From NCBI GenBank assembly GCA_044892525.1, contig CM097885.1:11224001-11288000 (forward strand): 64,000 bases of DNA, read 5' to 3'. Positions 5,909-39,200 of the stretch are shown in pieces. The translations under genes were made by a program, and so were the position numbers. The notes under the pieces are model-generated. The model saw only the letters and a program-made list of their open reading frames with translations, made no database searches and was not told where the DNA came from. This DNA comes from Schmidtea polychroa. Taxonomy: Eukaryota. Position 1 is the first letter of the stretch, and each line of letters opens with the position of its first letter.

Positions 5909-5911
5909 TGT

Positions 5912-6445: not shown

Positions 6446-6463
6446 TATTATTCATAGAGGTTT

Positions 6464-7627: not shown

Positions 7628-7701
7628 TTGGTAAATTTCTAATTGGTTATTGATTGATTTAAACAAACGGTTTTTTGTTTAGAATTCATTTTTTCAACAC
7701 C

Positions 7702-8564: not shown

Positions 8565-8589
8565 ATAAATGTATGTTTTGTTGATTTCT

Positions 8590-16569: not shown

Positions 16570-16619
<50 letters not shown>

Positions 16620-17739: not shown

Positions 17740-18039
17740 CTGAAAAAATAGTGAATTTAAACAAACAGCTTAATAAAAAATGCTGACTTATAATAATTAA
17801 AAATTTATTAAAATTGTTTATATCCCATGAAAATTTTAATATATGTTCAAAGTTTTGAAATTTAATTCGTATTTTTTATTGGACAATAAAAGTAGTTTAA
17901 TTTATATTTAATTTTTGTGTATGTAAAATTGGTTTTCAACTATTTAAAGATAAAAGATTTAAAAACACTTAGTGTTTGGTAAAAACTGTAGAAATTAAAA
18001 TATTTTTGAATACGATAGTAATGCATTTTCAGAAACCAG

Positions 18040-18989
18040 CATGACAATCACATTGATAAATTAAATAAATACAAAACCCATTGGCAGTAAACGGGAAACG
18101 TTGACATATTTTTCATTAAGATTTTTAAGCTGTTGAAACTATTCGAAAACAGACTGGTGAGCGTTGGAATTTATGCACGCAACCCTGCTGTAAAGGCATA
18201 TGTTTCTGATAAGAATTGTCGGGAAATAATTGCCTTTGCCTAAAAGCACATTGGCTGGACTACACAGCAATGGTCTGATGAACCAAAGTTCAACCTTTTT
18301 GTTTCCGATGGTCGATGTAAAGTTTGGCGCCCCAAACGAGAAAAGGACAATCCTCTATATTCCAGGGTAAGAATACCTCATTGATGGAGATTTTAACAGG
18401 ACAACGATCCGAAGCATTCCTCAAAGTCCTACAAGAGTGGTTCGTGAAGAAAAGGTCAATGTTCTGAAATGGCTGTCACAATCTTTGGACCTTAATCCAA
18501 TTCGAACATCTTTGGGATGAGATTGGATGAGACGCCTTGAAGGTCAACATTTCTCGAACTCGAATCAGTTGTATGAGAAACTTTAGGAAATTTGGTCTGA
18601 GATTCTTGTTAGCATATGTGAGCGCCTTGTGAACTCGAACCCACGCTGTTGTCAGGCAGTCTTGGATGCTGGTGGATACCCTACAAAATATTAATCATTA
18701 TCTATGTGTAAACTCTTTCACTCAGTATTTATTCTGTATTTATTCAGTACAAAAGAAAATAAAAAAGTGTTTCCATATTGATTTGATTCAAAATTGAGAA
18801 TTTTTTTCAAACAAATTACGATAAGAGTGTTAAAATTCCCTCTCATTGTTTCACTGATTGTACCTTCAGAAAGCCCACCTAAATTTTACCAAGAAGCACT
18901 AACGGGAAAATTCATGGCATTTACAGAATAAAATGATGAAAGATGAAACAAATTTCTATCTCATATTTCTATACTTTTTCTGCTCACTG
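18040..18989 (+). mobile_element. Tc1/mariner (Tc1-like DDE) remnant
   Basis: WSDEPKFNLFVSDGR, QDNDPKH, SQSLDLNPI..HLW and GGYPTKY* fragments. Right TIR ...CTGCTCACTG followed by TA. Confidence 0.88.
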
Positions 18990-19229
18990 TATATATGATA
19001 AATATAGAAATTATGAAGGTAATAAAGAAAAAGCTTAATGCGGAAGTTGAAGGATAATATTTATTTTACACAAAGATCTGCATATAGTGACATGTAGCTA
19101 TCTTATTAATTCATCTCAATCAACTACGAAAAACGCTTGTGATCATAGTAATAATGATCGAAGTAGAGTTATGTTGCTAGATAGTGATATAAGTATTGTT
19201 AGTCAACCTCCTTTTACGATTGTTAGCTT

Positions 19230-19472
19230 GAACGACATAACTCTTGTCCAACCAACTCATTTGCAAACTAACCTCAAAGAAACTATTGATTCTTAGTGAA
19301 GAAAGAATTAAGCAATTGGATATTAAAATCAGAGTTCACAGTGGTGGAAAGAACTCACAAATTTATGCAATCAGTCAAGCATTGGTAAAATCTGTTGTTG
19401 CATCCTAGCAAAAATTTGTTGATGAACAATCTAAAAGAGAGTTGAAAGAAAGCTTCATTCGATATGATGGAA
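19230..19472 (+). pseudogene. RPS16: 40S ribosomal protein S16 (uS9) pseudogene fragment
   Basis: LDIKIRVHSGGKNSQIYAISQALVKSVVAS*QKFVDEQSKRELK...YD matches RPS16; contains a stop and a frameshift. Confidence 0.88.
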
Positions 19473-20448
19473 GTGAAATTCCTTGGATATCTAATTATGA
19501 TAACAGCGGTATTTTTGATCAAAGTTTTGGCAGTTGAGATGGCCGTGAAGTCAAAACACACCCATAGCTCTATTTGGATCATCGCAGGTGAAGTGACACG
19601 ATTAGGGTGAGATATCGTCGCGAGATTAATGGAACTTTATCTATCGCAAGAAAATGAGTGCGAAAATTCCGGATAGTGTCGATTTATTGTCCACAATATA
19701 GATAATTGAATGGATAGAATGACTTACACCTAAATCCGAATTATAAAAGTCTCTACACCAAACACCACTGAGATTCATTCTCTATAGTGGTGGTTGGCGT
19801 GTAGAGCAATTGCTCACTCACCAATTTAATGAATTTCCTATCATATTTTGGAAATTTATTTTTGCCATTTTACAAATGGTTTTCAGGTAAGATGTTAAAT
19901 TTTAAGACTTGAATTTTGATCCATATAGATATGAGAGTTCTTAAATACTACTTTTAATCAACAGTATAAGTATAAAATATTTTTAATTAATTTTCAAGGT
20001 TTTTTAGGAATTTTATGATATTTATCTTTAAGTATTTTAGAATTATTTCGAAAAAATGTGAGTGAGATATATTTTTAATTATAATTAAATAAATCAATCA
20101 CCAAAAATATGTATTTTTCTAAATAATTTTTGTTTTTTTTCTGAGCTCAATATGAGATGCTTCTTTCAGGAAACCATCTGGATTGAAAAGACATTGAACC
20201 AGATTCATCTGCTCTTGATAATTTGATTAAAAATATATTTTTAAAAAGTTTCAGCGATCTTTTTTCTTTCTAAAAATTGTCAAAAATCAAGTTATAATAG
20301 AAACTTATCTCAGCGGTGCATTTCTACGAATCAAATGTTTATGTGTTTTTAGTGTGTGTTACGCTTGTGTGTAGTTTTTAATTTTTCTTCCAGTTTTCAG
20401 ATTTCTATAGTATAAAATGTATCTTACTGCACTATAAATGAGAACATC

Positions 20449-22302
20449 AGTAGGTAGTTAGTAAAATTGTTGCAACTTTTGATTACGCAATTGTTGCAAC
20501 TCAAATTTTTTGCGTTCAGGGATTTTTAGTCCAAAATTTTTTTTATCACACTATAGTGAGGGGGTCTCGATTGATCCTGAGATTTTCAATACAAAAAAAT
20601 TTTTTCAATAGAAATTTGAATTATCATTAAAAAGCCAAGGATTTTTCGAATTAAATTAAGGTGGGTCTCCTTGGTCATGAGAATTTCAATAGAAAAAGGT
20701 GGTCTACAATAAAAAAGCCAAGGATTATTCAGACTGTAGTGAGAGGGTCTCCATGGTCCTAGAATTTACAATCGAAAAAGACGGTCTTCAATAAAAAAGC
20801 ATGGTAATTTAAGGTCTCAGGATATTTTCAATACAAAAAGGTGGTCTACACTAAAAAACAGTGGTAATTTAAGGTCTCAGGATATTTTCAATACAAAAAT
20901 CCGATTATCACTAAAATAGCATGGATTTTTCTAGGTCAATTCAGGTGGGTCTTCTTGGTCCTGAGAATTTCAATAGAAAAAGGTGGTCTACACTATAAAA
21001 CTTGGTAAATTTTTTAAAATAAAGCAAATTATGGGTCTAAAAAATTGATTTACAGTAAATTATGGTCCAAATTTTTAAATTAAAGTAAATAATAGGTCTA
21101 ATAATTGAATTAAAGCAAACAATAGGCTGAAATAAGTAAATTAAGGTCCAAATTTTTGAATTACATTAAATAATAGGTCTAATAATTGAATTAAAGTAAA
21201 TAATGGTTCAAAATTTAAAATTAAAGTTAATTAAGGGTTCAACTAAGTAAATTAAGGTTCAAATTTTAAATTAAAGTAAATCAAGGTCCAAATTTTTAGA
21301 ATTAAAGTAATCAATGGGTTCAAATTTTTATATTAAAGTAAATAATGGTTCAAAATTTAAAATTAAAGTTAATTAAGGGTTCAACTAAGTAAATTAAAGT
21401 CCAAATTTTTAAATTAAAGTAAATAATGGTTCAAATTTTTAATTAAAGTAAATCAAGGTCCAAAATTTTAAATTAAAGTAATGAATTGGCTCAAATAACT
21501 AAATTAAGGTTCTAAAAAATTAAATTAAAGTTAATTAAGGTCCAAATTTTAAAATTAAGTAATCAATGGTAAAAAAATTTTAAATTAAAGTTAAATAAGT
21601 AAATTAAAGTAATAATTTTTAAATAAGTAAATTAAAGTTATGTAATAAGTAAATTAAAGTAATATTTTTAAATTTATTAACAAAAAGTTGAAATAATAGA
21701 AGATGTTTGAGAATTGAAATTTTTTAATGAAAATTTTTTATGAATAATTTTTTAAGTTAATTTTTAATGGAAATTTTTATGAAATATTTTTTAATGATAA
21801 TTTTAGATGGAAATTTTTATGAAATATTTTTCAAAGACAAATTTTAATAATAATTCAACAACAAACCAACAACTTAGTACCAACAACCAGTAACTTACGA
21901 ACATGTATTAACAACCACATACCTACAACTAGTTACTAACAATCAGTTACCTGATACCAAGTACTAACAACCAACTAGCTACCACCTACCAAGTACATAC
22001 AACCAACAACAACCAAGTACTAAGCATTATTAACTAACTACTAAGTACTTACAACCAAAAACAACCAGCTTACAACTAGCTACCACCTACCAAGTACTCA
22101 CAACCATTAACTTACGAACATGTATTAACAACCAAATACCTACAACTAGTTACTAACAACCAGTTACCTGATACCAAGTACCAACAACCACCTACCAAGT
22201 ACTAACAACCAAAAACAACCAGGTACTAAGCATTATCGACCAACTAAATACTAAGTACTAACAACCAAAAACAAGAAAAAACTAGGTACCAGATACCAAC
22301 TA
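20449..22302 (+). repeat. Left arm: AGTAG terminus, then ~60-bp GGTCT repeat, AAATTAAAGT-type repeat and CAACCAAGTACTAA-type repeat blocks
   Basis: Three distinct tandem-repeat blocks, truncated at 22302 where they join the protease intron. Confidence 0.8.
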
Positions 22303-22347
22303 AAAAACAACTTACTCCATGACAACTTTTTGTGTTTCTGTATACAT

Positions 22348-23563
22348 TTATACCAACACTGTTCTATTTGCAGTAATTTGAACTTCATTTTCAAATACTC
22401 CGTATATTATAACATGTACTGGTTCAGTAATAACTTTTGCAAACTTTATATCCAGTCGTAAATTTCCATTTTGAGGTAATTGACTTTGATTTAAATCAAA
22501 ATCAGGGGCTAAAACAAATGTAAAAAATGGGTATTTGCTTTTAAAATCTTCTAGAGTTATTCCGCAATTCAAAATTTTATCTAAATAACCCAGATTTCTA
22601 ACAATACTCTGCATATATGTCGCACAGTAATTGTCATTCTCGAAATCTTGAATATATGTTTCTCTATAATCAGTATTTTTCGACAAAGTCAATGATGTAA
22701 CACCAAAGTTTTTGAAAATTGAGCTGGACGCAGTATATGATCCATTATATTGTGCTTCACTTTGAAATGTTATCAGAATAAAATTAGGCATTCTTCTGTC
22801 ACCAAATATTTGTTCTTTATAGAATGATGAAGCACCTTTAGCAATAGCAAATTGTACAATTTCCTTTGTTTTTAATGGATAAATTGCATGTTTTGAATTA
22901 AGACCCAATTGATGACCTGCTAATACTGAGGGGTCTAGTCGTACTCTTCTCACCAATAATTTTGCATCAACTAATTGACATATTGGTGTAGTAGTTCCAC
23001 TAGTAAGAGATAATGCAGAATCAGACCTTTTCAGTCTAATATGTACATTAACTCCCGGTAGTAAATATTTCGGTTGATCCATAAAATCGAGTTGTAATGA
23101 TGAGCACATGGTGAAAACCTTTGAGCCTTTTACCCACTTTTTTCTTTCATCATCACTACCATAACCCATAGGTGTAAGACATGTATTTTTAGTATCAGAA
23201 TTGTAATTTAAAATAGTTTCTATTAATGCCTTGTGAATGAATGTATTATTTCCGCCGTCAATCTTGATATTATTAAATCCCAACACTGCATCTTTAAAAA
23301 GAGTATGAAACAGGAAATTGTTCGGTATTACATCTGCATTGGCATCCAAAACTTTTCTATCTTTATCTACAACCTTAATCTGAACAGTCAATAAAGTATC
23401 GTTCAAATCTAAATATTTGCGAACCATTAATATAAAACTCGATATCATTTCTACTATCGGTAATTGAATTCATAGGAAAAACTTCCTCAAATGCCCCAAA
23501 TTTTATTACAGCCTAGGGCGACGGTCTATCAAATATACATAATTCAGATTTACCACAAATTAT
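22348..23563 (-). pseudogene. Major capsid protein, copy 2 (start codon lost, frameshift near 23418)
   Basis: Highly similar to 2136-3356. ATG changed to ATA and a 5-nt deletion upstream of YLDLND. Confidence 0.88.
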
Positions 23564-23928
23564 TTTGCAAATATAGTTCCATGTCCTTTCATTCGTTTGT
23601 TTATACGTGATATTCCATGTCTTTTACGTTTTGGAGCTGGAGCTGGAGCTGGAGATTTTTCTTTTTGAAACATACCTGCAACCCCGGGTAAAACTTTCCC
23701 TAATTCAGCTAAAGCATTTGTTTTTAGAGATGGTAATATTTTCTGTTCATTCATAATAACGTCTTTTGCAGTTTTCATACCAAAACTACCAATACGTTTA
23801 AGAATAGGCAATGCAAATCTACCAATTGTTCTCAACCATCCCGATCCGTACTGTTTACCAATAAAATATGGTAATTCACCGCCAGATTGGCTACCACTAT
23901 ACATACTAATAATATCAGAATTAGCCAT
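23560..23928 (-). CDS. Basic core or membrane-active precursor protein, copy 2
   Basis: Near-identical to 3353-3724. Confidence 0.7.
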   Translation of the reverse strand: MANSDIISMYSGSQSGGELPYFIGKQYGSGWLRTIGRFALPILKRIGSFGMKTAKDVIMNEQKILPSLKTNALAELGKVLPGVAGMFQKEKSPAPAPAPKRKRHGISRINKRMKGHGTIFAK

Positions 23929-24964
23929 TTATTTTACGAAAATGTAATGTCAAATGAGTTTTTGAACCTTTTGGAAAGTTTATAAGTTTTCCACTATCAT
24001 CACGAATATTTATTTCTATATTGTTTATACATGAACTTGCTATTGATAAATACATGGGATTATCGATATTTATATTGACAACTTCATCATGTTCATATTT
24101 TCCAATCCATACCGATTTCAAAAGAGGAACACTGGAATCACCAACAATTATGGGTTCGATAATGTTAGTATATATGAACATTTGTTGATGATGTTCTAGT
24201 ATTCTTGGTTTGCGTATACCAGTCGAGTTTTCTCGATATTTTTGCTTATCTAATCCAAGTGAATTTGCCAAATTTTTATCAAATGTAACTTCGCAAATAT
24301 CCTCATTTAAACTGAAGGTAAAAATCAAATCTTTCACAATTTCCAAATTTTTAAATATGTGTGAACAATTGAACTTTAAATATTTAAGTAAATCATCAAG
24401 TTTATCAAAATATAATTCATCAGCAAAGGTAAATGATTCTTCAACTTCATCATTATACGACACAGATATTTTGATTTCTTCTTTCACTATACTGTTTGCT
24501 TCAAATAGATTAAAACGTAATAAATACTCGGTCTCCGTAACAATATTTTTCAACTTATTGCAACCCATTCGTTTGGCATCTTCAATAGTTTCGAATGTTA
24601 TTGTAAATGGTTTAAAATCACAACTGATATTTATTCCATCCTTGTAAAACATATAGCAATGCGAATCTAATATTTGATTCGGAATATGATATGTTTTATC
24701 ATAATTACTGATAACAAAGATACCGCTACATGTTTTCACAATATTCCTTTTGAAATCAATCTTACATTGACTATAAAATGGGAATGTGTTGTACACGAAT
24801 GTAAAATCTTGCAGTGCAACTTCCCAGTCACCATTTAAAGAAATCGGATTCTGGAGATTGACCATAAATTTACTGGCTTGATTGTCTGGATGAATTAATG
24901 GGCAACTATTGCTCGGTAAAATAGTATAAAAATTCACTTTACTAGGTCTTTTGCTGATATCCAT
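23921..24964 (-). CDS. Minor capsid protein (penton-like), intact, with divergent central domain
   Basis: Continuous ORF with FYTILPSNS...WEVAL and IVGDS...RDDSG...LHFRK motifs. Start placed at MDISK. Confidence 0.88.
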   Translation of the reverse strand: MDISKRPSKVNFYTILPSNSCPLIHPDNQASKFMVNLQNPISLNGDWEVALQDFTFVYNTFPFYSQCKIDFKRNIVKTCSGIFVISNYDKTYHIPNQILDSHCYMFYKDGINISCDFKPFTITFETIEDAKRMGCNKLKNIVTETEYLLRFNLFEANSIVKEEIKISVSYNDEVEESFTFADELYFDKLDDLLKYLKFNCSHIFKNLEIVKDLIFTFSLNEDICEVTFDKNLANSLGLDKQKYRENSTGIRKPRILEHHQQMFIYTNIIEPIIVGDSSVPLLKSVWIGKYEHDEVVNINIDNPMYLSIASSCINNIEINIRDDSGKLINFPKGSKTHLTLHFRKING

Positions 24965-25802
24965 GACGGGTTTTGATAACCATACCATTTTACATAGTAT
25001 TGTTTATCCTTACCGACCTTTTTAGTTTTCAATATTTTTTGAATTCTAAATACTTTTGGGGGAGGAATGACTTGTAATTCCTGCTCATAAAATTTCCCTT
25101 GTACAATATTATTATCATTGTCTTTGATGACATACATTACAGGATTCTGTTTAGTATTTATTTTTGAAATTACAAAGACTTCATCACTCCAATTTGTATC
25201 AAAATTTTTAATAAATGGTGATGCACTAATTTTACTAATTCTAACATGGTCACCGACTTTATATTTAGGTTTTGCAATTTTTACAGATTTCTTAGAAGTC
25301 AATGATGTTTTTGATGTAATATCAACCGGTCTCAATCCATTCAGTCCTCGATGTGATGAATGATTATAACTTGTTATTATTTTCGGTAAAGCATTTACCC
25401 ATTTTTTATTACCTTGATGCACGAACAATTTCTTTAATCTATCTCTCAATGTACGATTAAATCTTTCAACATGGGCAGCTTTGTATTGAGAATGTACCGA
25501 GTAGTGATTTATTTTGCAAACCTGCTGTATACATTAATACATGTTAAAATATATTTATTCCCATTGTTAATTTTCGAATAAGGTATCATCTCCATCAAAT
25601 CCATTTGCCATAAATCGTCAATACCAAATGTTTTATACGCTCTTGTTGGAAATCTTTTCCGCATTGGTTTGTTCAAACTGTACGCAAGCTGATCTGATAA
25701 CCACTTCTGGGTTTCTTTTTTCGAATTCGGAACTCTTTTCTTTAATTTTGCCACTCCACCGAAACCGGCATCGTCTTCTGGGTTCGTCCAAATCTTCTCC
25801 AT
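24934..25802 (-). pseudogene. Integrase, copy 2, with a ~262-nt deletion removing the intron and second catalytic Asp
   Basis: Junction at ~25515 joins copy-1 positions 5301 and 5564. Confidence 0.88.
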
Positions 25803-25860
25803 TACAACAAGAAGATTTAAAATTAAATTTAATGTCGGGCAATGAAGGATTAGCACCCAT
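25633..25860 (-). CDS. Small predicted N-myristoylated overlapping ORF, copy 2
   Basis: MGANPS...SSCC...RRR, same length as in copy 1. Confidence 0.5.
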   Translation of the reverse strand: MGANPSLPDIKFNFKSSCCNGEDLDEPRRRCRFRWSGKIKEKSSEFEKRNPEVVIRSACVQFEQTNAEKISNKSV

Positions 25861-25863
25861 TGT

Positions 25864-26388
25864 TTATGATTGATTTCCTACAACTCCACCTAATAATGAT
25901 AATGCCAGAGGTATCAATGCTCCAATAAATCCACCTTGTTGTTTATATATAATTTTCCTCATTTGCTTACGATTTTTATTATTTACTAAAGATAACAATG
26001 GTTTCCTATGTTTGCTCAATAAATGCTTTTTTGATTTAGTGATTTTAATTTTGCCTTTGACTACTTTAAGTATAATATTGAGTAAATCATCGACAACAAA
26101 ATTTGGGAATGATTGCAATATATTCAATCTTTTCATACTCGGGGCTTTTAACAATGCATTAAAAAATGGAAAACTGCGATGATTTTTAACTACTTTTTTA
26201 CTGGTTTTACGGGTTTTACGTTTAGGTTTAGGATTTTTCGAAATAAGATTCATTGCAGAGAAATTTTCAGTTACAAGTTTTTTAGATAGTGTATAACTAG
26301 TTGTTGGTGGAACTTTTGGAACTTTAATACTCTTTCTAATACTTTTTCTTAATTTCCTAATATTTTTCACCCTTGCTTTTAGAAACAT
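25864..26388 (-). CDS. Lys/Arg-rich core protein precursor, copy 2
   Basis: Near-identical to 5912-6445 with a 3-codon in-frame deletion. Confidence 0.7.
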   Translation of the reverse strand: MFLKARVKNIRKLRKSIRKSIKVPKVPPTTSYTLSKKLVTENFSAMNLISKNPKPKRKTRKTSKKVVKNHRSFPFFNALLKAPSMKRLNILQSFPNFVVDDLLNIILKVVKGKIKITKSKKHLLSKHRKPLLSLVNNKNRKQMRKIIYKQQGGFIGALIPLALSLLGGVVGNQS

Positions 26389-26406
26389 TATTATTCATAG
26401 AGGTTT

Positions 26407-27033
26407 TCAACTTTGTTTATAAACCATGGCACCTTTTGGGTTGAAAATATCTGTTTTTACTCGTAAATCATCGGGACATTGTTGCGTGAAATCAAGAAAT
26501 ATATATCCATGAGGTATTTTTGTAGCATCTTGAAATGCACTGATAAGAAAATTACGATTGTTAGGGTATGCTTGACGTGCAAGAAAATCAATCACTGTTG
26601 CATCTTTAGGATTCTCTAAAATAACTAAATATTGTACATTTAAATTATGTGTTCGATGTGCCCCACCTTGATGAAATAGATTTTGTGTTATGAAAATAAC
26701 TGTTACACCGACATGTCTGCTGATCTTTGTAAATAAATTATTAAAATCTTTTTCTTTATTAGCTTCTTGATACAAATCATCGATAATAATGACATCACCT
26801 TTCTTTAATCGCCTGGACCAGTTTTTATCGAATCCCTTTACTATTTTCATGTTTTTTAATTTACAGAAACTTGATTGAGTTAATCCATGTTCTTCATCAG
26901 CACCCCTATGCCAATAAATCCTGTTGAATTTTGATTTGAATAAATTTGATTTTAATAATTTACAAACAAATAATGTTTTTCCACTACCGCTCGGACCAAC
27001 GATTTGGTATACTGCATCATTTCTTAATTCCAT
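26407..27033 (-). CDS. Packaging ATPase, copy 2
   Basis: GPSGSGKT, IIIDD and ITQN motifs. Start at MELRN by comparison with copy 1. Confidence 0.9.
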   Translation of the reverse strand: MELRNDAVYQIVGPSGSGKTLFVCKLLKSNLFKSKFNRIYWHRGADEEHGLTQSSFCKLKNMKIVKGFDKNWSRRLKKGDVIIIDDLYQEANKEKDFNNLFTKISRHVGVTVIFITQNLFHQGGAHRTHNLNVQYLVILENPKDATVIDFLARQAYPNNRNFLISAFQDATKIPHGYIFLDFTQQCPDDLRVKTDIFNPKGAMVYKQS

Positions 27034-27136
27034 TTCAAAAATTTTATAAATATATGTGTATTTATTTATATTCGATGATTTAATGAACTCGTGCTCAATT
27101 TGTATATAAAGACTAATTTTCATAAATGATTTAATA

Positions 27137-27574
27137 ATGTTAGCAAATATAAATTATCGAGGAAATTTTGATGTATCGAATATGAGGTTCCCACCAGGGA
27201 AACCCCAACAAATTATCGATAGAAGAGGGAAATATTCGATAATATTTTTCAAGACTGGTAAATGCAAAATCATGGGATGTAAGAAACCTTTGGATATTAA
27301 TAAATTACAATATCGAATAAATAATATTATAATCCAATCAATTACCGTTACTATGGATATGGGACATAGTATCAATCTTTATAACATGTCGAAAAAATGT
27401 GATTGTATGTTTGAACCGGAATTGTTTCCGGCACTAAGACTATTAAAATATAACCCTATATGTGTCAACGTGTTTGCTAGTGGAAAGGTTGTCATGTTGG
27501 GGTTGAGAAATTTGGAGTATAGAGAATTTGTTGACAATGTTCGAAATGAGATAATTTCATTGGTCGATTTCTAA
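27137..27574 (+). CDS. TBP-like protein, copy 2
   Basis: Intact 145 aa with five substitutions versus copy 1. Confidence 0.85.
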   Translation: MLANINYRGNFDVSNMRFPPGKPQQIIDRRGKYSIIFFKTGKCKIMGCKKPLDINKLQYRINNIIIQSITVTMDMGHSINLYNMSKKCDCMFEPELFPALRLLKYNPICVNVFASGKVVMLGLRNLEYREFVDNVRNEIISLVDF

Positions 27575-27648
27575 TTGGTTAATTTTTAATTGGTTATTGT
27601 TTGATTTAAACAAACGGTTTTTTGTTTAGGATTCATTTATTCAACAAC

Positions 27649-28065
27649 ATGTACAAAATACCAAGCGCAGCAAATTTAATGAAAGATATTGACGACTACG
27701 GTAAATTTAAAATTTTTATTTTCACATTTTTTATATTTATTATTTTAGAAAAATATTTAGAAGTAATGCTCAATAGGATAAAATATTATTATCCTCAAAT
27801 TGCAGAAATAATCAAGGATAGAGAACCAGAAATCATTCCGGATCTCATATTCTATTCCACTCAAATTAGAATCATGGAGGTATTCCATCAATTTTTATGG
27901 GATATCAAGATTAATAGAACCATGAAACAAATGGAGCTGGAGTATCAATGTATGTTCGGATGTTCATGCTGTGCCGATCGATATCGGCGATATGTCGAAT
28001 GGGAGTTAGTGAAAACTCTGAGAAGGTTTCACTACTCCCGGATTGTTGATTTAGGTTATCAATAA
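27649..28065 (+). CDS. Unknown accessory protein with Cys cluster (CMFGCSCC); intron 27701-27748
   Basis: ATG at 27649. The 48-nt GTAAAT...TTTAG intron is also present in the copy 1 remnant. AATAAA overlaps the stop. Confidence 0.65.
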   Translation: MYKIPSAANLMKDIDDYGKFKIFIFTFFIFIILEKYLEVMLNRIKYYYPQIAEIIKDREPEIIPDLIFYSTQIRIMEVFHQFLWDIKINRTMKQMELEYQCMFGCSCCADRYRRYVEWELVKTLRRFHYSRIVDLGYQ

Positions 28066-28270
28066 ATGTATTTTTGTTTTTATTGTGATTTTATATTTGA
28101 AATAATAATATATAATAATAGTAATAATAATAATAATATAAATAGAAATAGTAATAATAGAAATAATAATAATAGAAATAGAAATAATATAAATAGTAAT
28201 AATAAAACATTAATAATAAAACATTAATAATAATAATATTTCACATTAATAGAACATAAATGCAGCAATA

Positions 28271-28381
28271 ATGCAAATGACATGCAAATTTAAACAAAGA
28301 CCTGCTATAATCTGATTGGTTGATAGGCATGAGTCAAAGGTATAAAAACCCTGTAACATTTCAATTTAATCATTATTCACT
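28271..28381 (+). promoter_or_regulatory. Compact Pol II promoter: two octamers, CCAAT, AP-1 site, TATA
   Basis: ATGCAAAT at 28271 and 28282, GATTGG at ~28314, TGAGTCA at ~28330 and TATAAAA at 28341, ~40 nt before the ATG at 28382. Confidence 0.65.
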
Positions 28382-28873
28382 ATGACCAAGAAAATTTCAT
28401 GCACCGAAAAACCAAAAGAAATGGTACAACCAGTTCAAATGTTCCACAACTACAAAATGTATTTTTTAAAAGAAGAAATCAATATAAAATTGGTGTCACC
28501 GATCAAGCTAATTCCAACTAAATTTCAATTCTTATCCGGCACGCTTTCAATGATTGATGTCAAAACTATTGATAATGTTTTTAAACGGATAGATTCGAAT
28601 CTATCTTGTAATCAACATGCATGGTTCAACAATAGATATGCAAGATTTTATGATGCTTTTGATGAAATCAGTTTCAAAGAAAATGAAAATTGGTATATAA
28701 CAATTGCAATCCAGGGATATAAAGTTGATAATAATGATGTATATTCTCCTATTTGGAAAATTATGTCTGCTAGACTTTCACAAATATTTATAATATATTT
28801 AATAAATGTATTAGTCATAATTGTTTTTCTCTTTATTAATTGCAACATAAATGCAAATGACATGCAAATTTAA
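28382..28873 (+). CDS. Unknown accessory protein, possibly OB-fold/ssDNA-binding; true 3' end uncertain
   Basis: ORF downstream of a clear promoter, with a beta-rich aromatic segment WYITIAIQGYK...SPIWKI. The fold suggestion is a weak inference. Confidence 0.5.
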   Translation: MTKKISCTEKPKEMVQPVQMFHNYKMYFLKEEINIKLVSPIKLIPTKFQFLSGTLSMIDVKTIDNVFKRIDSNLSCNQHAWFNNRYARFYDAFDEISFKENENWYITIAIQGYKVDNNDVYSPIWKIMSARLSQIFIIYLINVLVIIVFLFINCNINANDMQI

Positions 28874-28922
28874 CAAAGAAAATCTATAAACAAACTTATA
28901 ATATAGTTTTAAAGTGATAAAA

Positions 28923-29322
28923 ATGACTGCGGAAAAAGGTTAACATGATTAATTAATTACCGAATTATTTATTATTTAGAATTTGTAATCAACTTTTTGT
29001 TGGAAAAGTTAGCAGAAATATCTGGTGTGAAAATTGAGGACATATTATTTATTACAAATGCCTTAAATATCGGCTGGATAGTTGAGAGTCAAGATCAGGA
29101 TTTGATGATGAGGGAGAAACTCAAGAAATTGATGAGGAAGAAACTCAAGAAATTGATGAGGAAATCTATGAACCTATAGATGAACCTATTGATGAACCTA
29201 TAGAGGAACCTATAGAGGAACCTAACGATGAATCTAAAGATAATATTACGACTGATTGTATTGATCATGTCGTTGAAAATATAATGAAATGTGGAGATGA
29301 CGACTGCGAATGTGTTAATTAA
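28923..29322 (+). pseudogene. Acidic repeat-containing accessory gene (intron 28939-28979; frameshift near 29100)
   Basis: MTAEK|EFVINFLLEK..., then in a shifted frame ETQEIDEE x2, (D/E)EPI repeats and a Cys-rich end CIDH...KCGDDDCECVN*. Confidence 0.6.
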
Positions 29323-29392
29323 TAAATTTTAGTTAATTAGTGTTTGTAAATTTATTTAAAATTTTATTTAAAAATCAAACAAAATAACTATA

Positions 29393-29903
29393 TTAATTTT
29401 TATTTAAAAATCGCGATAAAGCATACAAAATAGCAACACCTGTTGCAAGTTTTATATAGTTTTTAAATTTCATTTTCTGTTCATCTATTTCCTTCGCATT
29501 TCTGGCGAGTTGATTCAGTACGCCCCATCCGCCATTGTCTTCAATCCATGGTTGAAACTTTGACTTGATTATCTAGAAAATAATTATTAATAAAATATAG
29601 ATTATAAAAGTATTACTTCTTGAGACCACTGATAATAATGTTCAGAGTCCCATAAACTTTTTTCGATTATGATCTTCATATAAGCGGTATTCGAGTCCAC
29701 TTCATCTTATCGTCACATAGGCAGTTAAAAATCCTATGAAAATAGAATTTTTTCGTTTCGAGGCAATCGGAATTGAGCACATCCTCATAATCAATATGAT
29801 TTCCTTCGATAATCTTTTCGGTCCGATCGATCAGGAAACTGAGGCTTTCCATAATCTTCTTGTTAATAACTTGGCTTAAAAGATTTTCCATAAAATGAGA
29901 CAT
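29393..29903 (-). pseudogene. Viral Bcl-2-family gene (BH3-BH1-BH2-TM); intron 29573-29616; frameshift near 29688
   Basis: BH3-like IMESLSFLIDRTE, BH1-like FHRIFNCLCDDKMKWTRI, BH2 FQPWIEDNGGW (exon 2) and tail anchor YIKLATGVAILYALSRFLNKN*. Confidence 0.8.
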
Positions 29904-30007
29904 TTCTACAATAATTAAAATATGATGTTTTATTTATACTAATACCGTATGATTTTGATTGGTTAATAGACTATAAATGTAAAAGAAAAGTTTTGATTTG
30001 ATACACC

Positions 30008-30508
30008 ATGAAAACTATATTCATATTGTTAATTATTATAACGAGTGTGTGCTCACACAATACAACAATAACCGTGGAGTCTTTTAATAAATCAATATGT
30101 GTTTGTCCGAATACAGCCAAGTTGATGGATATTTTATATATTCTCGACAAACCAAAATGGTCAAAGCATCCAGGAAAAAGAATATCTCAAAGATTGGAGA
30201 ATTTAGAAAACAGTTATGAACTATCATTTTAATATATACAAAATATAAAAATTAAATTGATTGATCATATTGAAGTTTTCAATAACTCTATTGTTGAAAA
30301 TAAAAAGAATATGAAAATTATTGATAAGAAGCATGATTATTTGTTAAAAAAGATCGAATTATTATTAAGAGAACTTCAAATAATCAAAGGATCAATAGAA
30401 TATCTGAAAATCAATTCAACGTTACCAATTTCAAACAATATTGCTGCGAATACTAGTACATCAATATTTAGTTTACCTTTGTTAATTTTACATTATTTTA
30501 TTGTTTAA
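30008..30508 (+). pseudogene. Secreted or GPI-anchored glycoprotein, copy 2, with premature stop at 30230-30232
   Basis: Near-identical to 8064-8564; GAA changed to TAA. Confidence 0.8.
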
Positions 30509-30534
30509 ATAAATGTATGTTTTGTTGATTTGTT

Positions 30535-30643
30535 TAATAATACCCTTGTGAGATGTTGAGCGTGAGCAGTACCCTTTTGAGCATTACCCATAGGTGGACA
30601 AAATATTTTGTCGGATAAACTCGGAGTATATAGATTAATACTC

Positions 30644-30716
<73 letters not shown>

Positions 30717-30750
30717 TTATTATAATAATAATAATAATAATATTAATAAT

Positions 30751-30799
<49 letters not shown>

Positions 30800-31362
30800 T
30801 TTTTAAAAATAATAATAATTATATATCATTGATCATGGTCTTGGGAAAATGTTAATAACTTTGCCAATATTAAAGATGGGGGGGGTCAAAACATCCTGTC
30901 GAATAAACTCAGAGTATATATAATAAAACTGATCAACAATAAGTATTTATTGAATGCGATTTTTACATTACAATAATAAGTCAGTAGTAATAATTTAAAA
31001 GAAGAATGTTTTGTAAATTAGAATTCATTGGTATTTCATTGTAATTTTTAATTATCATCAATTCCACGTAGTGATGAGTTGACAATTATTCAATTTTGAT
31101 GAAAATCAACATTTTTGTTAAACGTAGACATTTTGAAAAGGTTTTTCTACTGATTGTAATTAAAATTATTATAGAAGCTGTATAAAAAAAATTAATTTAA
31201 AAAAAATACATTTCATAAAATACAATAAAGGATATTTAGTTGATTGTAAGTAGTTAGTTGTAAGTATGTGGTTGTTTGAGAGTTAGTACGTGGTATCATG
31301 TTGAAAGCATTTGTTAGTACCTAGTTAAAAATATTTAGTAACCGATTGTTTGTAACTGTTGA

Positions 31363-31405
<43 letters not shown>

Positions 31406-33051
31406 CATTAAAATTTTCATTAAAAATTTACTTAAAAAATTATTTCATTAAAATTAACTTAAAAAATATTTCATAAAAATTTTCATTAAAAATTTACTTA
31501 AAAAATTATTTCATTAAAATTAACTTAAAAAATTTTACATTTAAAATTAACTTAAAAAAATTTTCATTTAAATTTTCATTAAAAATTACATTTATCAAAA
31601 AAGTTGGTGGTTATTCAATCTTTTGATAATAAATTTAAAAATCTTAGTTTAATTTACTTATTACATTACTTATTTAAAAATTATTACTTTAATTTACTCA
31701 TTTAGCTTTAATTTAAAATTTGAACCATTGTTTTCTTTAATTTTAAATTTTGAACCATAATTTACTTATTTAAAATTTTTAACTTTAATTTACTTATCCT
31801 TAATTTACCTAATTATTCTTGATTACTTAATTTTACATAATAATTTACTAAACAACTAATTATAACCCTTATTTTCATATTTAACTAATAATTTAATGTG
31901 GTCATCTGGTTATAAGTACTTGGTATCTAGTTGACAGTGCTTAGTACTAGGTAAGTTACTTGGTTGTTAGTACTTGGTATCTGGTTGTTGTCGGTTGTTT
32001 GTACTTGGTAGGTGGTAGCTAGTTGTTAGCTGGTTTTTTTAGTTGTTAGTACTTGGTAGTTGGTTAATAATACTTAGTACTTGGTTGTTGTTGGTTGTAT
32101 GTACTTGGTAGGTGGTTGTAGGTACTTAGTAGTTGGTAGTTAATGCTTAGTACCTGGTTGTTGACGGTTGTTAGTACTTGGTAGGTGGTAGCTAGTTGTT
32201 AGCTGGTTTTTTTAGTTGTTAGTACTTGGTAGTTGGTTAATAATACTTAGTACTTGGTTGTTGTTGGTTGTATGTACTTGGTAGGTGGTTGTAGGTACTT
32301 AGTAGTTGGTAGTTAATGCTTAGTACCTGGTTGTTGTCGGTTGTTAGTACTTGGTAGGTGGTAGCTAGTTGGTTGGAGGTACTTAGTAGTTGGTTACTAA
32401 TGCTTAGTACCTGGTTGTTGACGGTTGTGAGTACTTGGTAGGTGGTAGCTAGTTGTTAGCTGGTTGTAAGTAGTTGGTACAGTGTTGTTTACTGATTGTT
32501 GTTATATAGTTGTAGGTATCTGGTTGTAAATACATGTTCGAAAGTTACTGGTTGTTGGTACTATGTTTTTGGTTTGTTGTTGAATTATTATTAAAATTTG
32601 TCTTTGAAAAATATTTCAAAAAACTTTTCATTAAAAATTATCTTAAAAATTAATTCATAAAAATTTCCATTAAAAATTATCTTAAAAAATTATTTCATAA
32701 AAATTTCTAATAAAATTACTTAAAAAATTATTTCATAAAAATTTTCATTAAAAAATTTCAATTCTGAAACACCTACTATTATTCCAACTTTTTGTTAATA
32801 AATTTTAAAATCTTACTTTAATATACTTATTATATTACTTATTTAAAAATTATTACTTTAATTTACTTATTTAAAATTTTTTACCATTGATTACTTAATT
32901 TTAAAATTTGGACCTTAATTAACTTTAATTTAAATTTTTAGAACCTTAATTTAGTTATTTGAGCCGTTTCATTACTTTAATTTAAAATTTTGGACCTTGA
33001 TTTACTTTAATTTTAAAATTTGGATCATTATTTACTTTAATTTAAAAATTT
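30535..33051 (-). repeat. Right arm of copy 2: mosaic inverted repeat of satellite blocks, outer end truncated
   Basis: Reverse complement matches 21400-22300/56170-58441 and 61350-61430. Contains (AAT)n at 30644-30820. Confidence 0.8.
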
Positions 33052-33201
33052 ATTAATAATTCTGTCAAATTATTTATATTGAAATTAAAAATGTTTTTCT
33101 TTCAACTAACTGGTTGATGAATAAATTATTTATGAAACTAAAATTCTTTTAATGAAATTTTATTTGTTTAAATATTGGTTTTACTATAAAATATTCAAGA
33201 A

Positions 33202-36200
33202 ATGCTTGAAATTAGAAATTTATTGTTCAATATTATTGACAAACTAGCTGTTCAAAAGCTTTTTGATTACGCTCCTGAGTTTATTGAAACTTTAAATAAA
33301 AATCGTTCTGTGTTTTTGAACATATTAGATCATGATGTGAATTATTAATTTATTACATATTTATTTATCTAAACTTAATAGGCTTCAAGTGTAAATGATC
33401 GAAATTTAGTATTAAATTCTTATAGAGATCCAATTCAAATTCCAGGTTTCCAACAAAAAATAACACTATCTCAAGATTTCATCCAGGAAACAATAATTAT
33501 AAGCGATTTATTTAAGTTAAATGAAATAACATCTGTTGAATTATTACTATTCGGTTAAATTATATATTTTAGTGTACTCTTTTTTTACTCTAGTTTTACT
33601 CCTTAGGTGAAAGTGAGCGAACATCAAATCCTGACATGACTCGTGGATTATTGGCAGTAAATCAATATTATAATTCACAAAAAACAATAGTAGAAGCTCT
33701 GCGAAATCTACTAAAATTATTTTTAACAATCACAACAGACAATGCAAAAGCAGTGGAAATTGTAAACTTCACTCAAGCCTTTTGCGATAGTTTATTTCAA
33801 CATGGCCTATTTCCGAAATTGATCGGTTTATTAAAAAATCTAGACATAAACAAAGAAATCGAATTACTGGAATCTCAACGAGCTCTAGGAACAGCTAGGC
33901 ACAGGCGTCGGTTTTTTTTAATTTTTCAAAGCATTAAAGAAACACTGGCTGAATGTATTTTGTTACGAAGCTTCAAATGTCCACTTAATACGGCTGATAC
34001 AAAATTATTAATCGAATTTATGCGGGAATTTTATAAGGAAAGCAACAAAGAAATCAAGGTAATTGTTTTGCTTAATATTTGAATAGTTTAGTGAATTATT
34101 AATGTAGATAATTAATTATGAACATTTATTAGGGCAATTATTATATAATTATATATTTCATCAGTAGCGGTGGCTGTAGCAGGCGGGTGGAGCGCGTGGG
34201 GGGGGGTGAGGGTAACACGGGCTGTCCTATTTATTATCCTACATATTAATACGTATTTAATGAATGAAATGCTTCAATCAATGAGAATAACATTGCCAAA
34301 TGGAATGCCATCCGAATTATTCAGGGCGTAATTATCGATATATTGCTGTAATCATACAGAAACATTCATTATAAATTCAACCAATCATCGATAGCAAATC
34401 AAAAAACCAGTAAATTTATTGGATATAATCACTGCTTGTCATTAACCGCCTCTATAACTATTGCGCTTAGCTTTGGGCGTCGTTGTGACCCGATCCATGA
34501 GCCGGTGACAATTCCGTGGGCATGGCAACGCCTGATATAGCGCTAGTGATCATACACGCTAATGCATGCATGCATATCTGGAATATATCTAATATGGATC
34601 ATTTTGGCATCTCAATCAATGCCATCGGTGCCAATAATCACCACAGGATTCCAATCGATTGCATTTTATCGATCAATCGCTACCAGTTTCCCCGTTGTTC
34701 ATTTCCCAGCGGAAATTCCCCTCCAAACTATATAAAATGCGTTTAATCTATCGTTGACTGCTTTTTACACTATTTTATCGATATTTTATCTATTTTCTAT
34801 GTGACAAAATATTAATATTTAAATTTCCATCACCAAAAACGAAAACGATCAAAGATGATTCCTACTGATTAACCGCCTAGTTCCCGATATTGCTTATTTC
34901 TACCTTTTAATGATTGATTTTTCATCTTATTAATATTGTTTGATAACATTATATTTGAGTAATTGTAATCAATAATGTGATTTACTCAATAAATCGATTC
35001 GTAAATTTCATTTGAATAAATGTTACAGAATGAAGAGAATGAAACAATTGCTTTGCGGGAAGTTAAAATCGTAGATAAATGCTTTGTATATTTGCTAGTC
35101 AGTTTGATGGATTCAATTAATCCAGTCATTAATGAAAACAACGCGACGAATTATTCACAGGATTGTTGGTTTCATTCATGGCGTTTTTTATTTGTTGAAT
35201 TCCATCGGTTTAGGCCTCACGCATCCTTTCTTTACTGATGACGAATACACGAGAAATATTAGCGATCTGCTTTCGAAGAATATTAATGGGAATAATGATA
35301 ACGAAATGAAAGAATATGAAATGAAAAATATCGTTCAGAATTTTGATCAAGTTATATTTCTGGCATGGATTATTTCCCTACAGAAGGTGTCGCATTTGAA
35401 ACAGGAGAAATGCATTAACAGTTGTCAAATGACCACCAATTTCGGAGATTATGACGATATTTTGGACTGTGACCAATCGAAACTCGAATCTGGAAATCTC
35501 TATGAAATCTTTTCATTTTTGACCGTAATAACAGGAATTGAAGAATTCCATGAGCAGGTAAACGGATTTCAACGCGGGAAAGATTTCTGACTTTGTTTTA
35601 CAGAACATTTGGATAAAATGCTTTCATGATTTGGTCACCGATTTCATTATCTATATGCCGAAAATGCTGAAGGATTTAAAAACGGAAAGTTTAAGAACTG
35701 CATCGAATGTTACTCATTTCTCCTCATTGATGGGATTAATTGGAAATGTGCATGGGCCTCCTGAGAGATTGTTTGAATCTTCAATTCCATTTAATAATGA
35801 ATACTTGGAAAGCTTAACATTGGAATTCTGGGCTCCGCAAGACATGACAGGTACCGATTTATCGGCATCATTGATATCGGCTGGCAATTACAAGAATTTG
35901 CCTATCAAATCCAATTGTTCATATCGACAGTCGATGCTTTTTAAATTCATTCGAGACTGTGGAGATTTGATCGATAATCCAGAGTTTCTGTTGAATTTCC
36001 TCTTCATGTTGAAAGGGTTGTGCATAAATGAACGCGTGGCGGTTTATATTTACAATATGTTCAACAGCAATCTGATTGGTAAGCGGTTTCTGTTTTCTCT
36101 TTATAATTTCCATTTCCATATGAAATATTCTCATTTTTGGGAATTAAATTTCATCAACAATAACTCATTTAGTAAGCACTTTTATCTGTCACGCGGTGTT

Positions 36201-39200
36201 ACAGAGGCGCTGAAAGCGGTTTAAAGGTAGTCAAGGTCACTTAGGTAGGTTACTGTTAGAAATGTAGGTCAAGGTCATTAAAGTAAGTTAGAGATATTGG
36301 TTAAAGTTGTTAAAAGTAAGTCAAGGTTATTTGAAATAGGTCAAGGTCATTAAAGTAAGTTACTGTTAGAAATATCGGTGAAGGTCATTATAAGTTAGTC
36401 AAAGTCATTCAAAAAAGTCACAGCGAGGATCGAGTATTGATAAAAGTTGCATATACATATCAAATTATCAGGTTTCATAAATATGGCTAATAAATTATAT
36501 AAGTTTCTCCTTCACTGATCTAATAGCTGAAATATTTCATTCCAGGGCATCATAATAAGCTTTCTTGGGAATATTTTTCAACTTGCATGCTTCACCATGC
36601 CAAGTTTTACCACTCGAACCCTCACAGAAATCAAGTAATGGATCCGATGGAACTTGCAGGATTATTAGTTGTACTGCAGCTCACAAGGCAAGTGACTAAA
36701 ATGGTATTGGTTCTTTGGTGACATTTTCTACTGATTATTAACCCGGTAATTGAACAGAGTCCTAAAGTGTGTGAAATGATGGTGAATAACGACTCGCTGA
36801 TGATAGTTCAAAACTTGGTCTTGCTGTTGTCTTGTGGTGTACCAAAATCACTGAAAGCCGAGCTGTTTAATTGTTTGGCTGTGTTTTGTCATAACGTTTT
36901 AGTAGCCAAATCAATCTGGCAAGCACTCGAATCTAACAAAATCATAAGCAACTCACATGAAATCCATTCTTGTAGTATTCAAATTGAACTTGGGGAAAAT
37001 GAGCCTAAATTAGAAGAATTCGATATTACTAGAGCATTTCTCAATTTCCTATTAGCAATTGCTCCTCATATCTTGTGTGATATATCGTATTTGGATCAGT
37101 CTATGTTGTCATATGATAAATTGAATGTCTCCATTATTTCTGCTCCTTCTCATCACGCGGTTGTCGAGAATCTTACTTCTGTTGTCCAGTTGATGATGGA
37201 GAATGTTTTTCTCAAACATTCTATGAGGACCTATAGAAATATCTACGAAAAGGTGTGATTTACTTTATATTGATTTATTGATATCATTTATTATTAATAT
37301 TGATTTTAATATGATTATATTGATTTCTAAAAGTAATTAATTTTTCGATAAATAATAAAATTTCTTCCATATTCAACAAATATTATCGAATTCTGATTTT
37401 TTGACCTTGTATAAAGAATCAATGAAATTTTCTTTATTTTCTCACTTTTCAGTTTGCAATTTGTGAAAGCTTTTTGAAGTTGAGTAGTAAATGCGTCGAG
37501 TTATTCCTTGCTCAGAGCGGTAACACAAAAAACAGCAAATCTAAAATCTCCTGGTGTCAATATGATCCAGGATTTTACATTATCAATCAATTATTGTCGG
37601 AATCTCCCTTTTTCAAAACCATCGTTAGCATTATTGAAAATGGATTCCTACAAATCAATGAAACCCTAAATAATGTTACCTTTGGTCAGAAATCATTCAG
37701 CGAGCGAACTGTTGAGTTGTTGGGAAATTCCATATATCTTGCCATGGATTTAGTTTCAACCGTTTTGAAGCATGAATCATTTCTAGTTGAATTAAACACA
37801 AAATTTAAGTAGCTCATTTTTGGTTTTTTATCGATTTCCAATGACGATATTTTGCAGTAGTCAATATAAAATCGATAATTATCGCTCCAACATTCGGTCT
37901 GTGAAATCAAGAAATGTCATACCGCAGGAACTTAGCCAATTGTTGATCACAACTGGTGGATCTCAATCTTTCCTACCGAATCTCATTAAGTATATCAGCA
38001 TTGCTGATGAAAATGAGAAAATCGCAAGGAAAGCTTTAACGATTTTCAATTATTGTATTGAAATAGTTCAGCCTCATAGCAATTTGATGTTGCTGTTGAC
38101 CAATCAGAATGTAAATGAATTGATTTATCCCAATCATCAGCGGTTTATTGTTGTTACCATACATTAGGCAGTATATGTGGACATTTTGCCCCTGATGGTC
38201 AATTGCATTGATAAATATGGAGATATTGATTCGACTTTCGTTGATTGCGTCGAAAGGGGGAAAATATCTCAATTGTTTTTCAATGATTATGTTTCTCACT
38301 CTCCAAGGACTTTGGTGCTGAAGATATTGATCAATTGCCTCCAACAGCCAACTCCGAATCTCGGTCAATATCTGATGGGGTTTTCTTGTGCTAGCACGTT
38401 CTCAGTCAAACGGACATCATTGCAAGAAGCAGGAGTTGGAGATTTCCCGAAAACGTGTTTGCATTCATTGTTGAATCTCATTCAACGATTGGTTACTGGA
38501 ATCGTTTCAAATCCATTATTGAAGGATAATGATATCCCTGTGGAATGTCTCCCGGAATTAGCTGCCGATATGATCGATATCTGCCTTGGATATCGCATTC
38601 TTTATCTTTTAGCCAGTAACTCATTCACATCAATGGCTGTCTTGAGGTTCATTAGGAGCAATTACCAGTTCATTTTCAAGCAAATTGATTTGCTGGCATT
38701 TACAACTGCTCGATTAAATAATCCTGGTAAGTTATTATCATTATTGATTATTGATTAATTTAACGATATTTGAGTGTTGTTTAAATATTTTTGAGATCTC
38801 ACCGCACCTTTCTAAACATATTTAAACATCAAATGTTTCAATATATGAAAACAAATTAAAATTTTTTGGTCATTATCGATTTTCAATGTTTTTGATTTTT
38901 GAGATTCGCATTGATTTACCAGATCTTTTACAAAACACATTTATGAATCTGACAGAGAATTTAATTCTCTATGAAATGATATAAAAATATTTTAGAAGTT
39001 TTCATTTTTAATCTATTTTAATCAATACTTTGTAATGATTTATTCGATAAATTGATTATGAAATTGCAATATTATATATTGATTAATAAATACATTATAT
39101 TGATCTATATAAACAATTTTAAATGTGACGCGAGGCCTCGATATCAATTTGCCGGCATAAACACGGAATTCATATATATTTACTCTCATTTTAAATCTAG

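Follow-up and report, generated by a model that had tools for sequence, protein, structure and literature searches.

The early regions E1A, E1B-19K, E2A and E3 of adenoviruses consist of small spliced genes with promoters of their own, and they encode, among other things, a homologue of Bcl-2, a DNA-binding protein for replication and a glycoprotein. Late transcription in beta- and gammaherpesviruses uses a viral mimic of the TATA-binding protein (TBP), as described for ORF24 of KSHV, the herpesvirus associated with Kaposi's sarcoma (PMC7498053). Adintoviruses are divided into an Alpha class with PF03175-type PolB and a Beta class with divergent PolB (PMC8502044), Bcl2 is one of their occasional accessory genes (Starrett et al. 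2021, PMC8502044), and the legend of Fig. 5 of the same paper names a TBP-like gene in MELD viruses of non-animal datasets. Planarian Polintons are targets of Piwi-interacting RNAs (PMC8532177) and form an expanded class in Dugesia (10.64898/2025.12.11.693146). Here we compare with these systems a Polinton/Maverick piece of Schmidtea polychroa, which spans positions 22302 to about 30820 of a stretch of 64,000 nucleotides (assembly GCA_044892525.1, contig CM097885.1, 11,224,001 to 11,288,000; G000:C1:11224001-11288000 of the 781 Mb searched). This whole stretch is called the window below, and the piece is one of three of the same family in its 64 kb.

An initial annotation had noticed six small genes between the ATPase gene and the right arm of this piece. 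They are indeed there, five on the plus strand and the Bcl-2-like gene on the minus strand:

27137..27574, + strand: mini-TBP gene, 145 amino acids, open frame; Pfam TBP, second TBP repeat recognisable, first shortened
27649..28065, + strand: gene with a Cys cluster (Cx3Cx2C) and a predicted intron at 27701-27748; the family has two deep alleles of it
28324-28331: AP-1-like TGA(C/G)TCA site in the promoter of the following gene
[quoted passage not shown]
28886..28892, + strand: ATAAACA motif 5' of the acidic gene
28923..29322, + strand: acidic Cys-tailed gene, predicted intron 28939-28979; virion-class motif at -37; 33% D+E
29393..29903, - strand: Bcl-2-like gene with BH1/BH2-like motifs, a hydrophobic tail and a predicted intron at 29573-29616
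29904..30007: shared divergent promoter region of the Bcl-2-like and surface genes, one ATTGG/CCAAT and a TATAAAT on each side
30008..30508, + strand: predicted surface glycoprotein gene with hydrophobic ends, five N-glycosylation motifs and a coiled-coil-like middle

We think it reasonably probable that this locus is the decayed arm of a Polinton/Maverick, in which genes for TBP, SSB, Bcl-2 and three orphan proteins belong to a two-step gene programme with the TBP reading ATAAACA.

A stable gene set and two promoter classes

The arm is shared by a whole family of elements, called family A here. The genome search with the TBP query gave 4,151 first-look candidates, and the 150 that were scored were all 97-100% identical; by these matches the family is very large, with the reservation that the candidate counts (TBP 4151, SSB 3945, surface gene 2568, Bcl-2 exon 1 2394, polymerase end 9284) are not copy numbers. 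We compared 34 TBP-anchored stretches: 30 from the top-scoring matches, a choice biased to intact TBP genes, two from the window and two from the Bcl-2 search. Queries for Cys, SSB, the acidic gene and Bcl-2 exon 2 each matched 31 stretches, that for Bcl-2 exon 1 matched 32 and that for the surface gene 29. By the criterion used in this analysis, the frame was unbroken for TBP in 33 stretches, Cys in 28, SSB in 29, acidic in 28, Bcl-2 exon 2 in 30, exon 1 in 26 and the surface gene in 16. The cassette is thus present in other copies (29-34 of the 34 stretches), which makes it a constant component of the family and rules out a one-off capture of host DNA. The ratio of nonsynonymous to synonymous substitution rates (dN/dS), calculated pairwise between natural copies, exon by exon and where dS was measurable, lies at 0.03-0.46 for the six arm genes. 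The arm genes are under purifying selection.

The complete element was delimited in five of the nine copy pairs examined, out of ten retrieved, where inverted terminal repeats of approximately 650-820 bp with AG..CT ends and a 6-bp target duplication enclose a span of 16.6-17.3 kb. The order is repeat, polymerase, protease, capsid, pVII-like, penton, integrase, core and ATPase on one strand, followed by the six-gene arm. A probable polymerase frame of about 1,400 amino acids occupies the expected place in other copies. A homologous metagenome frame matches PF03175 with E 2e-21, and the polymerases of family A, of a second family (B) and of locus L124 gave no direct PF03175 match at E<=1; this absence points to the Beta class of adintoviruses. 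The polymerase of family B is approximately 60% identical to that of family A, and in its elements (L081/L082, L083/L084, L085/L086) an intronless Bcl-2 gene and the SSB, TBP and Cys genes adjoin the polymerase instead of the ATPase.

The TBP-like label of the first gene is borne out by Pfam (PF00352, E 3.5e-15, 56 bits against a curated cut-off of 22.9). With 145 amino acids the protein falls short of the two full repeats and the approximately 180-residue core of canonical cellular TBPs, and PDB profile matches cover its positions 54-145 only, the region of the second repeat. We collected 72 relatives with 38-96% identity, mostly of 144-165 amino acids and all with PF00352. The family retains FEPELFP, has a shortened first repeat and bears invariant polar changes on strands that in solved TBPs face the DNA. 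Among metagenome loci of at least 3 kb, the mini-TBP gene adjoins Polinton core genes in 25 of 34. By this distribution the mini-TBP is an old Polinton gene that belongs to a short, Polinton-linked TBP family; a recent capture of the host TBP was rejected because short TBPs travel with Polinton core genes across distant elements. Scans of viral contigs with the TBP and ATPase queries gave no matches. At L156:1795-2316 and 16 other metagenome loci, a 174-amino-acid frame that resembles a DEDD exonuclease stands beside the mini-TBP; it is absent from family A.

The candidate target of this TBP is the word ATAAACA. All seven sites in the element lie 10-160 nt 5' of a gene start on the coding strand (expected fraction 0.11); six of them serve the virion block, mostly from inside the preceding gene, and one serves the acidic gene, which carries the word in 29/30 copies. 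In the metagenome loci ATAAACA stands upstream of the ATPase (21/23), core (8/10), integrase (10/14) and pVII-like (6/6) genes, compared with 1/65 for TBP and 214 of 3912 background windows (5.5%). Elements that have diverged far in their capsid genes and have 32-41% GC keep the word in front of the same genes. A third Polinton family of the same genome (L200 with L043:1-3107; L097:6291-9680 with L202), whose polymerase is 28% identical, served as a control: it gave no TBP match in six 10-kb stretches, and ATAAACA was found upstream of 0/11 and 0/9 frames in its two copies. One third-family copy has a family A element inserted alongside.

The arm genes, apart from the acidic one, are preceded by words of another kind: TATA- and CCAAT-like 5' of Cys, SSB and the Bcl-2/surface pair, and TATA-like only 5' of TBP. 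The ATTGG/CCAAT and TATA-like words keep fixed places in 27/28, 28/29 and 27/27 copies, and the divergent Bcl-2/surface region is conserved in all 27 copies where it was located. The claim that most of these genes have their own TATA/CCAAT promoter therefore stands as to words at fixed places, but the pattern itself is not above chance: ATTGG..TATAAA occurs four times in the AT-rich window against 6.9 expected. Support for the words comes from position and conservation only. AATAAA was said to follow several stops; five of the six arm genes, all but TBP, have one at their usual stop or no more than 40 nt from it, and approximately 10% of the 40-nt windows of the cassette hold one. In the virion block the protease gene is followed by an exact AATAAA, and the ATPase, core, penton and pVII-like genes have none after them. 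Its placement after the last virion gene fits nested, 3'-co-terminal late RNAs with separate starts.

The two promoter classes point to an early/late split, and by analogy a herpesvirus-like early-to-late switch is likely. RNA polymerase II (Pol II) of the host would first start the CCAAT/TATA-type TBP, SSB, Cys, Bcl-2 and surface genes. The SSB would then support strand-displacement replication by the protein-primed polymerase, and the Bcl-2-like protein would delay host-cell death. Through the mini-TBP, Pol II would then be brought to the ATAAACA words of the virion genes and the acidic gene, and the late transcripts would be nested RNAs with a common 3' end after the protease gene.

The other products of the arm

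The beta-rich protein encoded downstream of the Cys gene has 42 relatives. With an alignment of 41 rows its model reached a pLDDT of 92; the single-sequence model reached only 33.5. The top five rows of a Foldseek search with the model were Enc34 SSB (E 0.06-0.3), and the viral library returned uncharacterised giant-virus proteins (E 4e-6). The best four of 48,161 chains by VIA were DUF2815, CP312R of African swine fever virus (ASFV), Enc34 SSB and T7 gp2.5, with Z 6.9-7.5, and the alignments cover 100-124 residues at a root-mean-square deviation of 2.8-4.5 A and 6-10% identity. With moderate strength, this modelling predicts a protein that binds single-stranded DNA, of the T7 gp2.5/Enc34 type. 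The oligonucleotide/oligosaccharide-binding (OB) fold is what the model has in common with these proteins (1je5, 5odk, ASFV CP312R 8hw5); it differs from them in its length of only 136 amino acids and in the missing acidic C-terminal tail. The SSB accompanies TBP in 22 of 80 metagenome loci. Word-index searches with SSB and Bcl-2 exon 1 returned near-identical relatives only, and the Atlas gave no usable match for the SSB or the Cys protein. An SSB would fill a gap in the replication kit of Polintons.

The Bcl-2-like label also held up: in other copies PF00452 exceeds its curated cut-off and the hydrophobic C-terminal tail is present. Separate exons of other copies match Pfam Bcl-2 with E 1.7e-4 to 0.34; read across the intron the family A gene reaches up to 34.5 bits, and the intronless family B gene 32.7 bits (E 1.1e-7), both over the cut-off of 31.4. 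The NWGR motif of Bcl-2 proteins reads KWTR in the element. L062, a host-like Bcl-2 gene with no Polinton gene within 10 kb, in which GTGAGT directly follows the GGW codons, gave the best match of seven non-Polinton Bcl-2 pieces to family B (38-43%) as well as to family A (24-27%). Since L062 is the closest non-Polinton match to both families, capture via mRNA is suggested, and the Bcl-2-like gene is likely a host capture, the only arm gene that has such a look; the Bcl-2 tree is compatible with this and not firm. Seven near-identical Bcl-2 genes lie at G000:C4:89.9-90.8 Mb (L051-L057), with no Polinton gene in the flanks fetched. The Burro giant long terminal repeat elements of planarians also carry a Bcl-2 domain (PMC6431247), and Bcl-2 matches within frames of up to approximately 3,050 amino acids in the genome fit these elements. 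The Bcl-2 of Burro differs from that of the Polinton in being a domain of a retroelement polyprotein, and it is not the closest match to the Polinton protein.

The Cys protein had no match in Pfam, PHROG, PDB or Atlas, and its profile was found in 0/80 metagenome loci; queries with the Bcl-2, Cys, acidic and surface proteins likewise gave 0/80. Acidic, Cys-tailed frames near TBP in metagenome loci carry ATAAACA in four of six cases. A strict LxCxE motif occurs in none of the frames scored from the 34 stretches, and the scan gave only MKCGD in the acidic tail (27/29); an E1A-like or Oncoid role was rejected for want of a strict LxCxE in these frames. In Oncoid and E1A-like genes LxCxE adjoins a CK2 site and paired CxxC. 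The Cys, acidic and Bcl-2 genes are split by gaps of 41-50 nt with GT..AG ends in 28/28, 25/26 and 23/23 copies with anchors found, the anchors having been chosen from visible copies. The gap lengths are often not divisible by three, and we predict that all three are introns. That the Cys gap, which is in frame in the window copy, could be coding was rejected, as its length is not divisible by three in 14 of 28 copies.

We read the arm as two layers: an old Polinton module of TBP, SSB and probably the acidic late gene, and a cargo of the host lineage with Bcl-2, Cys and the surface gene. The label of host manipulation that had been given to the whole arm is therefore too wide, as it would include a predicted replication SSB, an old Polinton TBP and an acidic gene with a virion motif. 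Two of the cargo genes are polymorphic among elements whose TBP is 97-100% identical: the two Cys alleles are only 69% identical and the two Bcl-2 alleles 76-80%. Cys type B was found with Bcl-2 type B in six copies and with Bcl-2 type A in eight, and the fourth combination in none of the copies typed. dS is saturated for Cys and Bcl-2 and 0.05-0.2 for the neighbouring genes. Gene-wise exchange between copies likely explains this mosaic.

The terminal repeats at L042:7129-7781, L046:7666-8329 and L050:7640-8078 hold 12-16 TGA(C/G)TCA sites, which we take to be AP-1-like, against approximately 0.1 expected, and a further one stands in the SSB promoter in 21/28 copies; induction of the element by wounds or stress is possible from these arrays. 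In a sub-lineage (L038, L042, L044 and L048, near 7130) the right terminal repeat starts within the surface gene. Since several copies of this sub-lineage exist, copying within the genome can proceed without the surface gene.

The copy in the window and its virion block

The cassette had been called complete, which does not hold for this copy: four of its six arm genes are damaged, the element is truncated and its polymerase is missing. The acidic gene has a frameshift near 29096, the Bcl-2-like gene a short deletion and a frameshift near 29687, and the surface gene a premature stop at 30230-30232 (its frame is uninterrupted at 8064-8564, in another copy). In the SSB gene the usual stop near 28790 is gone and the frame overruns it. 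The integrase is internally deleted, and the 5' start is missing from the capsid gene. The element is cut within the protease gene by a duplication junction at 22301, the piece has no polymerase gene, and no right-side terminal repeat was matched on this truncated copy. A near-identical repeat of the piece lies 40,871 bases downstream (99.75% identity over 10 kb), by which the piece either belongs to a recent duplication or is duplicated by the assembly. The tight overlap of the virion genes on the minus strand was seen as annotated:

26407..27033, - strand: A32/FtsK-type packaging ATPase, Pfam Pox_A32 E 4e-7
25864..26388, - strand: basic core-like protein with amphipathic C-terminus; putatively cupiennin-like
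25633..25860, - strand: 75-amino-acid frame starting with MG, overlapping the integrase start; recurs in other elements
24937..25802, - strand: retrovirus-like integrase with chromodomain, internally deleted in the window copy
23921..24994, - strand: putative penton, labelled by size and position
23560..23928, - strand: putative pVII/GasderminX-like small virion protein
22348..23563, - strand: putative major capsid protein gene, 5' end damaged; labelled by size and position
22302..22400, - strand: start of an adenain-like protease gene, which ends at the 22301 duplication junction
23598..26420, - strand: span of six ATAAACA words, 5' of the major capsid (-41), pVII-like (-100), penton, integrase (-65, -144) and core (-32) genes

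Pox_A32 on the ATPase and Peptidase_C5 (E 2e-6) on the protease copy at 62807-63259 are both over the curated cut-off. The integrase copy at 4720-5850 matched rve, under the curated cut-off (E 1.2e-5), and Chromo. The putative capsid proteins gave no Pfam or PHROG match, and the capsid, penton, pVII-like and core labels are our assumption from size, order and conservation. The MG-starting frame has a CC motif and recurs in four metagenome loci; it could possibly be a lipid-anchored virion peptide.

Elsewhere in the window, positions 1543-8590 hold a further family A copy with open TBP, integrase and surface frames, which lacks three arm genes (Cys, SSB, acidic) and most of Bcl-2. Large near-identical duplications (99.5-100%) pair 14739-22302 with 49500-57070, 22301-33151 with 63172 onward and 39689-43791 with 45394-49497; they are recent segmental duplications or assembly duplicates. 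At 33636-42000 and 17232-17465 lie host exons with a putative likeness to a Nup205-type nucleoporin and a casein kinase I.

Alternative readings and described systems

Several points weigh against a Polinton arm with its own late switch. ATAAACA was picked after the upstream regions had been viewed and not blindly, its raw count shows no clear enrichment (10 against 6.2; 17 of 200 shuffles), and it is missing 5' of the ATPase in the window copy and, in families A and B, 5' of the protease. Near-duplicates make up part of the metagenome loci, and the TBP-less control is a single family. Taken together, these sequences tie the TBP to ATAAACA by co-occurrence only. Host TBP can bind some TATA variants, and the word also equals what we take to be a Forkhead-type site. 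The PDB matches of the SSB model are middling (Foldseek E 0.06, Z under 8); because Z stays under 8, its OB fold of the T7 gp2.5/Enc34 type is given at moderate strength. For the Cys, acidic and surface proteins no family was matched, the Bcl-2 tree split of 87/90 is below star level with a false long-branch join, and the Bcl-2-like protein may be pro- or anti-death. Contigs of four runs, only presumed to be RNA, showed on 26900-29335 no GT..AG joint among the matches listed, and two of them run into intron letters, which speaks neither for nor against splicing; the Bcl-2 intron and the surface gene are outside their coverage.

The presumed Forkhead match opens another explanation: both promoter classes would exist, but ATAAACA would be read by the host, through a Forkhead protein or its TBP, and give expression specific to a tissue or stage, and the mini-TBP would have another role, such as regulating itself or binding the replication origin. 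The distance of the word to the gene start, which varies from about -17 to -100, would agree with it, and so would the rise of Polinton transcripts during normal planarian differentiation (PMC8532177). However, the motif is kept at the same genes across diverged elements, was seen 5' of TBP itself in just 1/65 cases and was not found in the TBP-less family of the same host, and we regard this explanation as unlikely. We are a little more sceptical still of an adenovirus-like layout, with the whole arm as an early host-manipulation region, the virion block as one late unit and the TBP-like protein as a decoy that dampens host transcription. The arm does hold a gene of the Bcl-2 family, a candidate for a surface glycoprotein, promoter-like regions that stand apart from each other, predicted introns and AATAAA signals, and Bcl2 and Oncoid genes are known in adintoviruses (PMC8502044). 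Yet the SSB fold, the missing strict LxCxE, the company of TBP with Polinton core genes and the virion motif of the acidic gene speak against it, as do the separate motif of each virion gene, the AATAAA only after the last gene of the block and the placement of four arm genes at the polymerase in family B. The early/late organisation proposed earlier thus gains from the two promoter classes, while its analogy with adenovirus E1/E3 versus late regions is a poor fit; overall the initial annotation is partly confirmed in its observation and partly supported in its interpretation.

The damage in this copy would also suit an arm that is now functionless, passenger DNA made of host fragments that a purely transposing element picked up and copies with itself. 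The surface gene fits such decay as well, being unbroken in only 16/29 copies and, in one sub-lineage, truncated by the terminal repeat. The dN/dS values well below 1 for all six genes contradict it at the family level, so that it holds for the single copy only; moreover, four of the genes are common to the family with approximately 60% polymerase identity, and TBP and SSB recur in unrelated metagenome Polintons. We consider passenger DNA highly improbable. The decayed arm with its TBP-driven two-step programme remains our preferred reading. A bolder form of it, which we hold only tentatively and would not quite wager on, sees a broad clade of 17-kb Polintons with a minimal late-transcription system of their own: the 145-amino-acid TBP would be retuned to ATAAACA and redirect host Pol II to each virion gene, as the smallest such switch known. 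In this host the element would perhaps be triggered by stress through the AP-1-like arrays of its terminal repeats, and deep Bcl-2 and Cys alleles would be swapped between copies as in a recombining virus population in conflict with its host.

These findings bear on the timing of Polinton genes and on the question whether Polintons are still viruses in their behaviour. If the switch is true, a herpesvirus-like late-promoter logic would exist in a far smaller virus, and given the TBP and its seven-letter motif, one small protein and one short DNA probe are enough for a test of the timing. Thousands of TBP-like and Bcl-2-like copies can also confound host gene annotation and the design of knock-downs. 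Our literature searches, which left Repbase and part of the Starrett supplement outside, gave no description of the gene set or the motif.

In comparison with the adenovirus early regions, the element has in common small, apparently spliced genes with their own promoters, as well as Bcl-2, DNA-binding protein and glycoprotein genes placed off the virion block. It differs in the lack of an E1A-type motif, in the predicted OB fold of its SSB and in virion promoters that are apparently individual instead of one major late promoter. The Beta-type adintoviruses and animal Polintons/Mavericks share with it a probable PolB without PF03175 match, an rve integrase, an FtsK-type ATPase, an adenain, terminal repeats and the 6-bp target duplication (PMC8502044). 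A short TBP, a T7-type SSB and a dedicated upstream motif were not found described for animal adintoviruses in the accessible part of that paper; the element, unlike them, has no LxCxE Oncoid gene and, in family A, carries its accessory genes beyond the ATPase. With the KSHV ORF24 system it shares a TBP-like protein, a non-standard TATA-like word at late genes and, presumably, the use of host Pol II, and no shared ancestry between the mini-TBP and the herpesvirus mimic is implied. ORF24 is a large protein with its own Pol II-binding domain, five partners and the word TATT, whereas the element has a TBP of 145 amino acids and ATAAACA.

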